Shown: in pieces, positions 49,645 through 54,756 of the stretch
Layout of the letters: the number at the start of each line of letters is the position of its first letter
Numbering within the stretch: the stretch's first letter is position 1
Assembly (NCBI GenBank): GCA_001791645.1
Contig: MGFA01000019.1
Location: 29,774 to 93,773, forward strand
Reading direction: 5' to 3'
Source of the DNA: Candidatus Uhrbacteria bacterium RIFOXYB12_FULL_58_10
GTDB taxonomy: Bacteria > Patescibacteriota > Patescibacteriia > UBA9934 > GWF2-40-263
Length of the DNA stretch: 64,000 nt
Position numbers and translations under genes: made by a program
Notes under the pieces: generated by a model
What the model saw: only the letters and a program-made list of their open reading frames with translations
Told to the model about the DNA's origin: nothing
The model's database searches: none

Positions 49645-49715
49645 TAGACAATGGCGCCCGCCGGCGGTAAGCTGGCGGGTGTTATTGTTATCGAGTGTAT
49701 ATGACCGGAGAACGA

Positions 49716-50411
49716 ATGGATCGCGGCATGACGCGCGTGCCGGAAAAAAGACTCCAAGAAATCGTAGATGATTTTGGAGAAATGGAGAGACTTTGGAATC
49801 GACGGATCATTTTCATTACAAACAAACGCAAGGTGGTCGCGCACGCGGAGTGGCAGGGCAGCGACATCGTGGTCACCAAGCTGCGCCGCCCTGAAAAGAC
49901 GAAGCTTCAGGTTGGACAGGTGCTGTACGAGGGATATCGTCCCCCGCCGGAGCTGCCACCCCGCCCGGAAATCCGTGTGGACGGCTGGCGGCTGATCCGA
50001 AATGCCCAGTATGACTCGACGCAAGCGGCCAAACCGGATCCATTTTGGGAGGAATACGAAGGCTGGTTTTTGATCCCCGACAAAATCAACGGGGGCGATG
50101 GGCTTGAGGAATACCTCTTCGACTATCCCGAGCTCCTTGCGGGCGACACTCCCTCCTACCGGACCCTTGAACTCAAAGAATTGAACGCGGACAGCCTTCG
50201 CATGGCCGCCTTTTCCGAGGTCGACGCGTACGTGTGCGGACGGACGGAACAGGTCCCCGCCTTACTCCCGTTCGTCCCTCCGAAAACGAACGAGGTGGTT
50301 CTCTACCGTCCCAGCGTGTGCTCCTGCGGATGCGGAAATTTCGAAGGATGGCACCGATATTGGGAAAATAAATGGATTGTGTACGTTCCCCGCGCAAAAT
50401 CACCCTTATGA
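49716..50411 (+). CDS. Orphan protein with C-terminal CSCGC motif
   Basis: Open frame with GGAG RBS; stop overlaps the dcd-like start (ATGA). Confidence 0.6.
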   Translation: MDRGMTRVPEKRLQEIVDDFGEMERLWNRRIIFITNKRKVVAHAEWQGSDIVVTKLRRPEKTKLQVGQVLYEGYRPPPELPPRPEIRVDGWRLIRNAQYDSTQAAKPDPFWEEYEGWFLIPDKINGGDGLEEYLFDYPELLAGDTPSYRTLELKELNADSLRMAAFSEVDAYVCGRTEQVPALLPFVPPKTNEVVLYRPSVCSCGCGNFEGWHRYWENKWIVYVPRAKSPL

Positions 50412-51058
50412 TCCTTTCTCGACAAGACGTCCTCGCGCAATTCGCTTCCGGCGGGATCCGGTTAACTCCGGAGCTTGACCGGTTCCAACTGCAGCCGCAT
50501 GCCATTGATCTGCGCTTGGGCTACAAGTTTTTGATCCCGCGCAACTGGACGATCGACGAAAAGGGCCGGCGCGCCATCAAGGTGTCCATCGACGACGCCG
50601 CGACGCATCCCGAACAATTCGACGAGGTCATCCTAAAGCCCGGCCAGTATTTCGAACTGCTCCCAAACGAATTTGTCATCGGCACGAGCCTCGAGCGCAT
50701 CGAGATGAACGCGCCGAACCTCATGGCTATTCTTTTTCCGCGTACCTCCACTAACCGCCGTGGCATTGACCTGTCGCTTAGCGGCATCATCGATGTCGGC
50801 TACAAAGGCAACCTCATCTTTCCGATGCAAAACGAGGCGGGAAACCAAGTGATCCGCGTCTATCCGGGAGAGCGTGTGTGCCAGGTGATCTTCGAGGAAC
50901 TCAAGACTCCGCTCACGCCAGAGGAAGCCGACCTGCACGGGGTGAGCGCCGCAAAATATTCCGAGTCCGACGGCGCGTTTAAACTCGACAAGGACGAAGA
51001 ACGCCAAGCCCTCATCACCGGCACGCTCGACGAAATGAAAAGGCGGTTCGGGATTTGA
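50408..51058 (+). CDS. dCTP deaminase/dUTPase-fold protein (Dcd-like; catalytic Glu replaced by Pro)
   Basis: MILS, QPHAIDLRLG, RTST.R.G, IDVGYKG, YPGERVCQVIF. Confidence 0.85.
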   Translation: MILSRQDVLAQFASGGIRLTPELDRFQLQPHAIDLRLGYKFLIPRNWTIDEKGRRAIKVSIDDAATHPEQFDEVILKPGQYFELLPNEFVIGTSLERIEMNAPNLMAILFPRTSTNRRGIDLSLSGIIDVGYKGNLIFPMQNEAGNQVIRVYPGERVCQVIFEELKTPLTPEEADLHGVSAAKYSESDGAFKLDKDEERQALITGTLDEMKRRFGI

Positions 51059-51099
51059 CCCCGAGCCGCTTTTTGGATAAGACACTGAGCGGAGGACAC

Positions 51100-51488
51100 A
51101 TGAAACGAACCGTCCGAGCGTCGCCGGGCCATTCGCCGGCACGCTGCCACGCTCAGCGACGAGCCTGTTCTTCCGGAACGGTTCGGCGCGACGCTAAAAT
51201 GGCAGGAGGATGCCGCGCTTGCCGAAACGGGATTCGCGAACGTTCGATCGATGAAGGCAAGCGTCAATCGATACTGGAAAAAAAATGGGAAAAGGCCGAA
51301 GGTCTCGAGATGTGATACTTCGCGCGTTTCGACGCGAGGATCGGCCGCATCCCGCCCTTTCGCCCGGCGACAATGATGCACTGGCCTATTTTTACCGTCA
51401 CACGGAAAATAGGACATGGAAAGAAACGGGCCTGCTCATCTTAGGCGTAATCGCCTGTTTTTTTATAACTGTCTCAGCACGTTCTTGA
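51100..51488 (+). pseudogene. Probable frameshifted small membrane-protein gene
   Basis: GGAGGA RBS and ATG 51100; protein-like segments in successive frames joined at A-runs, ending in a TM helix. Confidence 0.35.
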
Positions 51489-52182
51489 ACTGGCGGCAGG
51501 CGGTGTCGTGGTCGTCGCAGACGATTTGATACACCGGCTTTTCCTCGGTCGGAAGATGGATGGTGATATCGCTTCCTTTGCAGATGGCGCGCACGTGCGC
51601 GTCTTCGTTTTCCGTCACCTCGCAGCCAAGATCTTCGATGGTCTGCTGAAGCTTGGCCGCGAGCACATCGTCGGCTCCCTCCACGCGCACGGTCTTTACG
51701 GACGGCTTGAGCGTTTCCGCGAACACGCGATCGCGATGAAACCGCTCGTGCGCGTCATCGGTGACATAGAGGTCGCGGATACCGGCGCGGATGAGCGAGT
51801 TCCAACACGGCTCGCACGCCCACCAGTGGCCATACATGTACGCGTCGGCCCCCTTGATATCGACTCCCTGCTCCGCGGCCACCTTCACGGCCATCTGTTC
51901 GGCGTGTCCGGGCGCATCGTGCAGCGTGCACAGGTCATACCCCGTGCCGCTCGGCACGTCGAGCACGATGCGCGGGCACACGTGCGGCGCGCCCGATCCG
52001 CGATTGAACCCGTTGCCAGCGGTCACAAGAACCCTGCCGTCGCGCACGATCGCGATTCCGACGGGATACTGCGGATCTCCGGCCTGCCGCTCACGCGCGC
52101 TCTTGGCCGGGATCATGCATTCATGATCGTGCGACACATACTTGAGATGGCGGTCCGACGGCATGTAGGGATAGTTGGGCAT
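51463..52182 (-). CDS. dCMP-deaminase-like Zn-dependent deaminase with extra C-terminal domain
   Basis: VGIAIV, GNG, CPR....PSG.GYDLC, HAE, CEPC. Confidence 0.85.
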   Translation of the reverse strand: MPNYPYMPSDRHLKYVSHDHECMIPAKSARERQAGDPQYPVGIAIVRDGRVLVTAGNGFNRGSGAPHVCPRIVLDVPSGTGYDLCTLHDAPGHAEQMAVKVAAEQGVDIKGADAYMYGHWWACEPCWNSLIRAGIRDLYVTDDAHERFHRDRVFAETLKPSVKTVRVEGADDVLAAKLQQTIEDLGCEVTENEDAHVRAICKGSDITIHLPTEEKPVYQIVCDDHDTACRQFKNVLRQL

Positions 52183-52185
52183 ACG

Positions 52186-52680
52186 TTATTTCAAGAGAAG
52201 ATAATGCAAGAGAACGGAGGAATCACCAAGCTTCGTCGTTTCTAACAACTTCAGATTAATCCGAGCCCCATTGCGGAACAACGGCACGCCGTCTCCGAAC
52301 AGCACGGGCTCCACGGTCAGGAATAACTCATCCACGAGACCGACCGACAAAAATGCGTCGTAGATCGCCGCACCGCCGCAAAGCGCCATCCGCGTCACCC
52401 CCTCGCGCTCAAGCCGCGCAACGAGATCCGCGGGCGGCTCGCTCGTCCATTCGACCCCCTCGATCCCCGTCCTTGAACTCATCACGATCGTCCGTCGATC
52501 TTTCAGCGGCTTGCCGATCGTCCCAAAGGTCTTACGTCCCATGACCACCGTCCCGATCTCCTTTGTCTTCGAAATAAAAAATCGCGTGTCTTCCCTGCTC
52601 GTCCAGTCGAGCGAGGACTGTTCCGCGCTCTGAGCAATCTTTCCGTCCGCGCTTACGGCGGCGATGAGGGACACGATCAT
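52186..52680 (-). CDS. Dihydrofolate reductase
   Basis: IAAVSADGKI, W.S.ED..FF, VMGRKTF, PLKDR, CGGA.IY. Confidence 0.88.
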   Translation of the reverse strand: MIVSLIAAVSADGKIAQSAEQSSLDWTSREDTRFFISKTKEIGTVVMGRKTFGTIGKPLKDRRTIVMSSRTGIEGVEWTSEPPADLVARLEREGVTRMALCGGAAIYDAFLSVGLVDELFLTVEPVLFGDGVPLFRNGARINLKLLETTKLGDSSVLLHYLLLK

Positions 52681-53510
52681 ATGGCGATTTGCACTTTTTT
52701 CATAGGGGTTCCGGGAACGTACTGGGATTGAAACATCTCGACGAGCTCGCTGACGAGCGTTGGGTCGGCGTCGAGCGCGCGCTGGAAGGAACGCTCCGGA
52801 AGGCGGCACTCGATCTCGGCGTGCGGCGCGACCTCCCGCGCGAGGATGTCCTCGACCGCGTCGAACTGATTCTCGTAGATATGCGCGTGCGAGATGGACA
52901 CCGTAAGCTTGCCCACTGCGGTCCCGAGTTCCTGTGCGAGCATGGCCTGCAGGAGCGCGAAGTCAGCGACGTCGTTCGGGTTGCCGAGCACCATGTCGTT
53001 TGAACGCACGACGAGATGGAGGTTGAACTTCCCGCCGATGATGTTCGCCGTCCAGGTGAACGGACATGGGACGTTTTTCTTTTTTGGCGCGCGCAGCCCG
53101 TCGGTCGCTGGGTCCCACATCACCACCACGCCCTGCCGGCTCGACGGCTCCTCGCGCAGATGCTCGACGAGATCGACCAGCTGATCCCGGCCGAAGTGGT
53201 GGCGCCAACGATAGCCATACGCGGTTTCGACCGTCCCGTCCTCTTCCAAAAAGCCGTCCCAGCCCTTGGTGAACTGCTGAAGGAAGCCTGCATGCTTGTG
53301 TCCGGCCACGAACCAAACCGTTTCCGCGCAAAAAAACTTTGGGAACATCTTTCGGACGGTAAGAAGAGGAAACCCCTGCGCCGGATGAATCTCATAGGTC
53401 ATTCCCGGAATCGCTTTGGTCGAAAACCCCGTCCGTTCGCTCCGAACAGTCTCCCCTTCCCGGTAGATCCGGCCAAGAGCGTCCAGATAGAGACGGTCAA
53501 ACATAGTCAT
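52677..53510 (-). CDS. Thymidylate synthase homolog, predicted dCMP-specific (Asn177-equivalent is Asp)
   Basis: RTG, FPLLT.RK, E..WF, YGYRW, SRQ, PC, RSND, HIYENQ motifs; LGNPND instead of LGxPFN. Confidence 0.9.
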   Translation of the reverse strand: MTMFDRLYLDALGRIYREGETVRSERTGFSTKAIPGMTYEIHPAQGFPLLTVRKMFPKFFCAETVWFVAGHKHAGFLQQFTKGWDGFLEEDGTVETAYGYRWRHHFGRDQLVDLVEHLREEPSSRQGVVVMWDPATDGLRAPKKKNVPCPFTWTANIIGGKFNLHLVVRSNDMVLGNPNDVADFALLQAMLAQELGTAVGKLTVSISHAHIYENQFDAVEDILAREVAPHAEIECRLPERSFQRALDADPTLVSELVEMFQSQYVPGTPMKKVQIAI

Positions 53511-53579
53511 AACTCCCTCATCCTATCAGACAACTACCCTGTTTCCAAACGTTCAATTATGGGCTAAGATGCGTTCATT

Positions 53580-54014
53580 ATGAACATCCCTGTGGATATT
53601 ACCAAGGTTCATCCGGACGCGAAAATACCCGAATACAAAACGTCCGGAGCGTGCGCGTTCGATTTGGCTCCAGTCGAGGACGCGGTCATTCAACCAGGTG
53701 AAATCAAAGGGCTGCGAAGCGGCCTGGTCATCAAGGTTCCGGAGGGATTCGTGCTTCTCATTGTCTCCCGCTCATCAACGCCTAAAAAATACAAACTGAC
53801 TATCCCCCAGGCGGTCGGGATCGTTGACAATGACTTTTGTGGGCCGACGGACGAACTGCTTCTCGTTCTCCATAACTTTGGGACGGAACCTGTCGAAATA
53901 AAAAAAGGCCGGCGTTTGTGCCAGGGACTCTTCGTTCCGGTTGCGATCGCTCAGTTTCAGGAGACAGCTGGCCATGACGCTCCGAACCGAGGCGGATGGG
54001 GATCCACCGGCTAA
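53580..54014 (+). CDS. dut: dUTPase
   Basis: AFDL, SRSS, GIVDNDFCG, CQG, RGGWGSTG. Confidence 0.92.
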   Translation: MNIPVDITKVHPDAKIPEYKTSGACAFDLAPVEDAVIQPGEIKGLRSGLVIKVPEGFVLLIVSRSSTPKKYKLTIPQAVGIVDNDFCGPTDELLLVLHNFGTEPVEIKKGRRLCQGLFVPVAIAQFQETAGHDAPNRGGWGSTG

Positions 54015-54033
54015 ATCGTGTTATAATCGGGCT

Positions 54034-54756
54034 ATGGAACGGCCTGGACGGTTTATCATGATCGACGGGATCGCCGGCAGTGGAAAGTCCACTTTGCTTC
54101 GGGCCGCCCAGGAATGGGCGCGTTTGTGCGAACACCGCGTGTTTGACCTCGGCGCATGGTCCAAGGAACACGCCGAGCCGCCGCGCTTCGAGGAGATCGC
54201 GGACTATGACGCGTACTTTACCTTCGAGCCGACGCGACAATGGGTCGGCTCCGCGATCCGGTTCGAGATGTCACGCACGGACGCGCCGTATTCCGGAACG
54301 TCGCTCGCGCACGCCTTCGCGCTCGACCGAGAGATCATGTACAAACGTCTGATTCTGCCCGCGCTCGACGCAGGAAAAACCGTCATCCAGGATCGTGGCG
54401 TGAGCACGTCCATCGCGTACCAGCCGATCATGCAGAACGGACTCGCGCTCGAGGACCTGGTCGCGCTTCCAGGAAATGCGCTGGCGCTCAAGCATGCCCC
54501 AGGACATCTCATTCTCACCAGACTCGATCCGGCCGTAGCAATCGAGCGCGTCAAGATGCGCGACGAGGAATCCAAGGGGGTATTCGCGGATCTCGACTTT
54601 CTCCGAAGGGTGGACGAGCGCTTCCGGTCCGACTGGTTCCAGGAAATGTTCCGCACTCAAAACACGATCTTCCACGAGCTTCCGACCGACGCGCCGCTCG
54701 ATGCGACCGTGGAACGCGCCCAACGATTGATTTCAACCATTTTGACCTCTTGCTAA
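54034..54756 (+). CDS. tmk: Thymidylate kinase
   Basis: IDGIAGSGKST P-loop, FEPT, DRG..TSIAYQ. Confidence 0.88.
   Translation: MERPGRFIMIDGIAGSGKSTLLRAAQEWARLCEHRVFDLGAWSKEHAEPPRFEEIADYDAYFTFEPTRQWVGSAIRFEMSRTDAPYSGTSLAHAFALDREIMYKRLILPALDAGKTVIQDRGVSTSIAYQPIMQNGLALEDLVALPGNALALKHAPGHLILTRLDPAVAIERVKMRDEESKGVFADLDFLRRVDERFRSDWFQEMFRTQNTIFHELPTDAPLDATVERAQRLISTILTSC

Follow-up and report, generated by a model that had tools for sequence, protein, structure and literature searches.

The window analyzed here is a stretch of 64,000 nucleotides of contig MGFA01000019.1 from Candidatus Uhrbacteria bacterium RIFOXYB12_FULL_58_10, and it contains a cluster of six pyrimidine genes that probably encodes the only de novo route to thymidylate in the cell, one in which the cytosine nucleotide is methylated first and deaminated second. 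The best reading of the sequence is a housekeeping pathway predicted to run from dCTP to dCMP, from dCMP to 5-methyl-dCMP, and from 5-methyl-dCMP to dTMP. Cells are thought to make thymidylate with ThyA or ThyX acting on dUMP. That nucleotide has been described as an obligate precursor of de novo dTTP (PMC5519681). The features of the cluster are as follows.

50408-51058, plus strand: Dcd-like gene, 216 amino acids, PF22769, Dcd/dUTPase fold
51442..51457, plus strand: terminator-like hairpin and T run, in the intergenic space where the dcd-like and deaminase genes converge
51463-52182, minus strand: zinc deaminase of the dCMP deaminase family, PF00383
51466..51690, minus strand: C-terminal ~75 amino acids of the deaminase, a shortened remnant of a DNPH1/NDT-like dNMP N-hydrolase domain
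52186-52680, minus strand: reductase of the dihydrofolate reductase (DHFR) fold, PF00186 (63 bits) and RibD_C (PF01872, 60 bits)
52677-53510, minus strand: ThyA-like gene, PF00303, homolog of the Xp12 type of thymidylate synthase (TS)
53580-54014, plus strand: dut, trimeric dUTPase, PF00692, divergently transcribed
54034-54756, plus strand: tmk, thymidylate kinase, PF02223

The six clustered genes, the 4-nt overlap of the ThyA-like and DHFR-like genes (ATGA, 52677-52680) and the 3-nt gap between the DHFR-like and deaminase genes (52183-52185) all lie where the original prediction, made from the letters of the window, had placed them. The hairpin is a consensus match only, and such sites are no commoner than in shuffles. 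The codons for Asp180 of the ThyA homolog and Pro139 of the Dcd-like protein are both covered by contigs of run X7, and the former also by contigs of run X8, with identical letters at these codons (neither run is flagged as a possible source of the assembly); the sole shared difference of the run contigs in the stretch is at position 54434, in tmk.

In the predicted pathway, class II ribonucleotide reductase and Ndk would give dCTP, and the Glu-less Dcd-like protein would, with somewhat better than even probability, hydrolyze dCTP to dCMP. The ThyA homolog, with methylenetetrahydrofolate, very probably converts dCMP to 5-methyl-dCMP, while DHFR and serine hydroxymethyltransferase (SHMT) would regenerate the folate. 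The deaminase is expected, with equally high confidence, to yield a thymine nucleotide, and this product would most likely be the monophosphate. Tmk and Ndk would then give dTTP, and dut, in relatives together with a DNPH1-like domain fused to the deaminase, would dispose of dUTP, dUMP and hydroxymethyl by-products that the ThyA homolog could not use.

The catalytic cysteine of the ThyA homolog is kept (Cys149, codon 53064-53066, E. coli Cys146), and Asp180 (codon 52971-52973) aligns with E. coli Asn177, which confirms the cytosine-type aspartate first noticed at this position from the sequence alone; all 33 relatives in its clade have Asp177. Proline replaces E. coli His147 within a KNVPCP motif, Asn146 occupies position 143 as it does in phage Xp12, a further motif reads RSND..GNPND, and Asp169 is retained (as Asp172). 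Ser167 and Arg126 are also kept, unlike in the CMP enzyme MilA, so a deoxy substrate is favored. At the 12 active-site positions near C5 that are listed in PMC13326640, the window enzyme is identical to the Xp12 enzyme at 10, to T4 gp42 at 8 and to E. coli ThyA at 6. Exchange of Asn177 for Asp is reported to shift preference to dCMP (PMC8670742, PMC13326640), residues 177 and 147 are reported as those most strongly tied to cytosine modification (PMC8670742), and the Xp12 TS is reported to make 5-methyl-dCMP, as do five of seven deaminase-linked phage homologs (bioRxiv 10.1101/2024.12.05.627091). In a comparison with 50,697 phage records, the top bit scores among the 60 matches listed, of 4254 matching records, belonged to PaMx74, DoCa10, Donnerlittchen, Xp12 and their kin, at 157-162 bits and 35-40% identity. 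A quick tree of 91 rows joins the ThyA clade of the Candidate Phyla Radiation (CPR), together with eight viral relatives, to Xp12/PaMx74 (SH-aLRT 92) and sets canonical ThyA apart (96). The named records nearest to the protein are Uhrbacteria, other Patescibacteria or metagenome-assembled genomes automatically labeled as Gammaproteobacteria, and its Atlas cluster is mostly Uhrbacteria. By sequence, the homolog falls in the Xp12 clade, and the module most likely works like the Xp12 pathway.

The genome to which the window belongs (G000; 1.12 Mb, 100% complete) has one ThyA match and one PF00383 deaminase, and neither ThyX, a second ThyA nor a thymidine kinase was found in it; thus, no de novo source of dTMP other than this cluster is visible, and the thyX or canonical thyA elsewhere in the genome that the original prediction had named as a check was looked for and not found. 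The only Dcd-family matches are the Glu-less gene and dut, with no Glu-bearing Dcd. Also present are class II ribonucleotide reductase, SHMT, Ndk, PyrG, cytidylate kinase (Cmk) and a protein of the uridine kinase family. The pathway had originally been called "uracil-free", which is overstated: dut lies in the cluster, and the presence of uracil-DNA glycosylase (UDG) does not track the Asp type. No UDG-superfamily match was found in G000; among relatives of its family (f1) UDG is over the cut-off in only 2 of 36, regardless of the type of TS. Grouped by TS type, 10 of 40 genomes with the Asp type pass the cut-off, as do 8 of the 26 others. Loss of UDG as a mark of such a metabolism was ruled out, since UDG follows lineage and not the Asp type.

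Among 60 relatives, 47 had a ThyA match and 44 of these were aligned, leaving out three weak matches in proteins of ~500 amino acids and two second copies. The aligned proteins comprise 33 of the window clade, all with Asp177, ten with Asn177, and one canonical scaffold with Asp177 (G011). Members of the deaminase clade occur in 32 of the 34 Asp177 relatives (both exceptions lie at contig ends) and in none of the other 26. Of the 34, 31 have a full-length Glu-less Dcd and one has a copy truncated by the end of its contig; in two, none was found. In a sample of 200 genomes of the phylum, each at least 90% complete, a window-type ThyA (at least 395 bits; next 160) is found in six genomes from five families, the deaminase clade in exactly those six (at least 90 bits; best elsewhere 47.5), and the Dcd-like clade in the same six and in one of the 194 others (G202, beside an ordinary dCMP deaminase). 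The anticipated co-occurrence of Asp-type ThyA, Glu-less Dcd and this deaminase therefore holds both in the relatives and across the phylum sample. The residue changes themselves are not chance: Asp177 is found in 33 of 33 relatives and the proline of the Dcd-like protein in 31 of 31. ThyX is present in 0 of 40 Asp-type versus 10 of 16 other genomes; thymidine kinase is over the cut-off in 15 of 41 Asp-type genomes and was not found over it in the remaining 26. Species genomes of GTDB contain 396 stretches that encode a relative of the window ThyA; of the best 80 of these 396, 65 have DHFR nearby, 58 the deaminase and 44 the Dcd clade, with Asp being present partly by selection (one search pattern contained it) and some loci being from the same genomes as the relatives above. 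When only the 41 loci of 12 kb or longer are taken, the numbers become 39, 36 and 30. Gene order varies between lineages, and of 43 more distant loci, 10 have SHMT close by. The proposed sequence of events, in which the ThyA-like enzyme methylates dCMP, the deaminase acts next and Tmk phosphorylates dTMP, is supported by the Xp12-type active site and by co-occurrence, and further by the finding of no other enzyme for de novo dTMP synthesis in G000.

Thymidylate synthesis takes other forms among the relatives. Those lacking ThyA (L305-L307, G009, G021 and others) encode a double-ThyX-domain protein of 600-800 amino acids, in many cases close to an open reading frame (ORF) that comprises two Dcd-family domains in tandem. 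The weak TS matches in ORFs of ~500 amino acids (G041:C5, G050:C34, G060:C30, G058:C22:45024) are in genomes with ordinary Dcd. On one viral contig (L199), a Glu-less Dcd and a related deaminase accompany a TS of the Asp type.

The association also extends across ThyA scaffolds. The ThyA of G011 (L068:5998-6867) is 61-65% identical to its Asn-type CPR neighbors in the tree and has Asp177 and Tyr147; it reads GLPFDIVAHG, and a lone base error is unlikely because several neighboring residues differ too. Synteny, deaminase and Dcd-like gene in G011 are as in the window clade. In place of this deaminase, an ordinary dCMP deaminase is found in Asn-type G039, which is kin to G011, and in Asn-type G058, which is less closely related. 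The special deaminase tracks Asp177 across unrelated scaffolds. A motif scan of 301 genomes of the class returned one further canonical-scaffold enzyme with Asp177, in G479 (L314:8081-8995). The ThyAs of G011 and G479 have origins separate from the Xp12-type clade. A de novo change from Asn to Asp within the G011 cell was considered and is not supported, as Asp-type viral sequences branch just outside its clade. Elsewhere, a large and mostly low-GC group of viral and metagenomic TS sequences (L330-L569) has Asp177 in the motif GLPYDIA, keeps His147 and has few deaminase matches nearby.

The zinc motif of the deaminase is HAE...C..C, within a distinct clade marked by HWWxCxxCW, and His93, Glu95, Cys123 and Cys126 (HxE and CxxC) are invariant in 19 of 19 deaminases. 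PF00383 scores 42.9 against a cut-off of 25, the best PDB match of the deaminase profile is the dCMP deaminase of S. mutans, and the model (pLDDT, the predicted local distance difference test, 81) matches the folds of the T4, S-TIM5, PBCV-1 and human enzymes. Its context makes deamination at the level of the monophosphate the probable choice, because Tmk keeps Arg78, because Tmk is common to Asn-type genomes and two Tmk types alternate, and because the best PDB match of the fused domain is the dNMP hydrolase DNPH1. Tmk retains the P-loop, Arg78, DR and AYQ motifs of the E. coli enzyme, which are functional motifs of thymidylate kinase, although its TIGR00041 score of 79.7 is slightly under the cut-off of 83.25. 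The same Tmk is found in Asn-type G038 and G039, and over 33 loci two unrelated types alternate (23 with one, 7 with the other, 0 with both, 3 with none). Many deaminases of the relatives end in a full-length PF05014 domain (best PDB match human DNPH1, E 3e-5) carrying a D...PSLG.G.E motif, of which the Glu part is widely kept and the Asp is variable; the PSLG..GE motif is absent from the C-terminus of the window deaminase, and PF05014 had no match in G000. From relative to relative, the fused DNPH1/NDT-like domain is intact, partly degenerate or deleted (L033:7166-8077, L040, L043, L063, L064), and in some distant lineages a similar N-hydrolase domain is a separate neighboring gene (L158, L178, L181). 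At L321:6245-7791 (G252) the deaminase clade is present as two tandem copies, one of them fused to a P-loop kinase-like domain.

Glu138 is the catalytic residue of dCTP deaminase. In the Dcd-like protein its place is taken by Pro139 (codon 50822-50824), so the loss of the deaminase glutamate is borne out; this proline (Pro138 in E. coli numbering) is shared by all 31 aligned relatives, almost every distant homolog and one viral locus, whereas Glu is retained in ordinary Dcds. E. coli Asp128 and Arg115 are retained and Ser111 is replaced by Thr, and the motif-3 Asp129 and the motif-2 Thr113 and Arg117 are present, these being pyrophosphatase residues of the trimeric dUTPase superfamily; TIGR02274 scores 88.6, below its cut-off of 92.8. 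An AlphaFold model of mean pLDDT 45 was not used. Where both are seen, the gene is always beside a PF00383 deaminase, Asn-type genomes included, and in G039, G058 and G202 it adjoins an ordinary dCMP deaminase; next to a dCMP-level deaminase in Asp and Asn routes alike, it occupies the spot where a supplier of dCMP is needed. Its residues and neighborhood suggest that the protein is likely a dCTP (perhaps also dUTP) pyrophosphatase supplying dCMP. Human DCTPP1, which has a different fold and would be a functional analogue, is reported to feed dCMP into thymidylate synthesis. This is nevertheless the weakest step of the route, given gaps in the distribution of the gene and a possible dUTPase or dual role.

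Several observations weigh against the route as drawn. Most Asp-type relatives belong to one family and are non-independent, and no P value is attached to the co-occurrence. Among 240 mostly viral Asp177 enzymes of canonical scaffold, 177 keep His147 and most have no deaminase match nearby, so Asp177 alone is no proof of the route; loss of His147 as an obligatory partner of Asp177 was ruled out by the same count. In G479, the ThyA with Asp177 and Pro147 sits with dut, DHFR and a deaminase of ordinary type. The folds matched by the window deaminase span both monophosphate and bifunctional (dCMP/dCTP) enzymes, and the deaminase of G019 (L047:4261-5214) has an internal stop after the zinc motif in a genome that has a thymidine kinase. 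The phage deaminase mSCD-B5 is reported to act on triphosphates only (5mdCTP and not 5mdCMP), and selectivity for 5-methylcytosine (5mC) is reported to be polyphyletic and unreadable from sequence (bioRxiv 10.1101/2024.12.05.627091). Finally, G017 and G026 yielded no Dcd-like gene. Of 44 genomes tested, 16 have no true dut (for the Asp type, 14 of 41), and in 15 of these 16 the Dcd-like gene is the only candidate of the trimeric dUTPase fold; no search for dimeric dUTPases was made. The protein may therefore act as a dUTPase or have both functions.

These last observations would also fit a tentative variant, compatible with the route and in doubt over a single step, in which the Glu-less Dcd is only a dUTPase, for which archaeal Dcd-like dUTPases are the model, and dCMP is supplied by Cmk running in reverse or by the breakdown of DNA. 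As this variant would have it, the protein retains the Asp and Arg of the dUTPase type; however, most relatives keep the gene alongside dut, dut has been lost far more often than this gene, it is present in six of six Asp-type versus one of 194 other genomes of the phylum sample, and it is always next to or with a dCMP-level deaminase.

An improbable alternative is an Xp12-like system in which 5-methyl-dCMP becomes 5-methyl-dCTP and enters the chromosome for much or all of its cytosine, part of it being deaminated to dTTP and the Dcd-like protein removing dCTP. The module has the logic of Xp12/PaMx74 (pyrophosphohydrolase, TS, deaminase, DHFR), Cmk and Ndk are present in the genome, McrBC was not found in five of five Asp-type genomes tested, and in phages this type of TS is reported to accompany full replacement of C by 5mC (bioRxiv 10.1101/2024.12.05.627091). 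On the other hand, no dedicated kinase travels with the module, and its Tmk is shared with Asn-type genomes; the Glu-less Dcd accompanies Asn-type ThyA as well; G000 has an intact C5 DNA methyltransferase together with a NotI-family nuclease; and C5 methyltransferases, for which fully methylated DNA would leave no work, have matches in 8 of 42 genomes of the Asp type and in 7 of the 20 others. The methyltransferase island of G000 is of low GC (0.45 versus 0.58) and may be recent, which weakens that argument; it is a type II restriction-modification pair inserted among mur genes (G000:C7:11334-13392, L584). A search for Vsr gave matches in two of five genomes, and neither this nor k-mer avoidance gave any indication on genomic 5mC. 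The indirect signs lean against replacement of C by 5mC in the chromosome, and a single nucleotide pool that feeds both T and 5mC in place of most chromosomal cytosine, with Dcd draining dCTP, is rated slightly less probable again.

It is just as unlikely that the ordinary order applies, with the deaminase making dUMP from dCMP (or dut supplying it) and the ThyA homolog methylating dUMP or both substrates. The cluster does hold a dut and an enzyme of the dCMP deaminase family, the ThyA homolog passes the TIGR03284 cut-off (117 versus 108), and G479 combines Asp177 with an ordinary deaminase; but the reported effect of Asn177Asp turns preference to dCMP, His147 and Gln165 are replaced too, as in Xp12, no true dut is present in the 14 of 41 Asp-type genomes noted above, and the special deaminase tracks Asp177 even onto the scaffold of G011. 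In the methylate-first route, dut likely only removes dUTP, and the DHFR-fold reductase, homologs of which also adjoin Asn-type ThyA, is predicted to recycle dihydrofolate. That the ThyA homolog is a dCMP hydroxymethylase, making hydroxymethyl-dCMP and, after deamination, hydroxymethyl-dUMP, is very improbable despite its polar residue (Asn, not Leu) at position 143, its RSND motif as in T4 gp42 and the DNPH1/MilB-like domain fused in relatives, since hydroxymethylases are reported to have Asp or Glu at 143 (PMC13326640) where Xp12 has the same Asn as the window, DHFR is adjacent in 39 of the 41 long loci and SHMT in 10 of the 43 distant ones, and the genome would be left without a source of dTMP.

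Compared with known systems, the module is closest in its TS to Xp12/PaMx74, with which it shares 10 of 12 active-site positions, KNVPCP, Asp177, a sister-group position in the tree, the linkage of TS, deaminase and DHFR and, as predicted here, the logic of methylating and then deaminating. Unlike the phage modules, from which it is removed by an identity of only ~37-40%, it is chromosomal and conserved in cells, where indirect signs from contigs give no indication that 5mC replaces C in DNA; the window deaminase and pyrophosphatase gave no match to their Xp12 counterparts, and the pyrophosphohydrolase beside the TS of Xp12 and PaMx74 is unrelated to the Dcd-like protein. The authors of the mSCD-B5 study propose that this enzyme, a 5mC-selective deaminase of PF00383, supplies dTTP in phages with fully 5mC DNA (bioRxiv 10.1101/2024.12.05.627091); it needs a triphosphate, whereas the window module, with Tmk and a dNMP-hydrolase domain, points to a monophosphate. 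The canonical ThyA route has the same fold, Cys146, Trp80, Tyr94, Asp169, phosphate arginines and DHFR and Tmk partners, but the window enzyme differs by Asn177Asp, His147Pro, Gln165Val, Leu143Asn and Trp83Phe, and methylation is predicted to come before deamination rather than after it. T4 gp42 and MilA share Asp177 and the RSND..G..ND motif; gp42, at 23% identity, differs in that the window enzyme has Asn rather than Asp at 143 and is linked to DHFR, and the ribose residues Ala176 and Lys133 of MilA are not present. Nor is the Asp169Asn of 5-hydroxy-dCMP synthase (RB69 gp48 type), the window enzyme keeping Asp172. With Dcd, bifunctional Dcd:Dut and Dcd-like dUTPases, the Dcd-like protein shares its sequence family, Arg115, Asp128 and a KY tail, and it differs from them by Glu138 to Pro, the loss of His121 and a near-invariant Asn at 114. 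The C-terminal domain of the relatives' deaminases matches DNPH1 (Rcl)/MilB but is fused to the deaminase, variably degenerate and, in the window copy, a remnant.

Upstream of the dcd-like gene, with a 4-nt overlap at its start, is a 238-amino-acid ORF on the plus strand (49695-50411) that follows rplA. It has no Pfam or NCBIfam match, no counterpart in the relatives' loci and no useful Atlas match, and was excluded as a member of the system because it lacks both a family match and a presence in the relatives' loci.

Methylate-first chemistry is on record for Xp12 and other phages related to it (bioRxiv 10.1101/2024.12.05.627091), and two CPR papers treat thyA as ordinary; a literature search that covered few subscription journals found the phage route and no cellular case. 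The chemistry itself is thus already known, and what is new here is its likely use as a cellular housekeeping route. If the prediction is true, cells would have a third way of making thymidylate, one that ordinary thyA and dcd annotations conceal. The route predicts that the dUTPase fold can serve as a dCTP pyrophosphatase, which would be a new activity for it, offers new candidate 5mC-selective deaminases, and suggests that phages and CPR bacteria have exchanged genes for nucleotide modification. A tiny groundwater bacterium and many of its relatives likely share a route in which thymidine is made by way of methylated cytosine.

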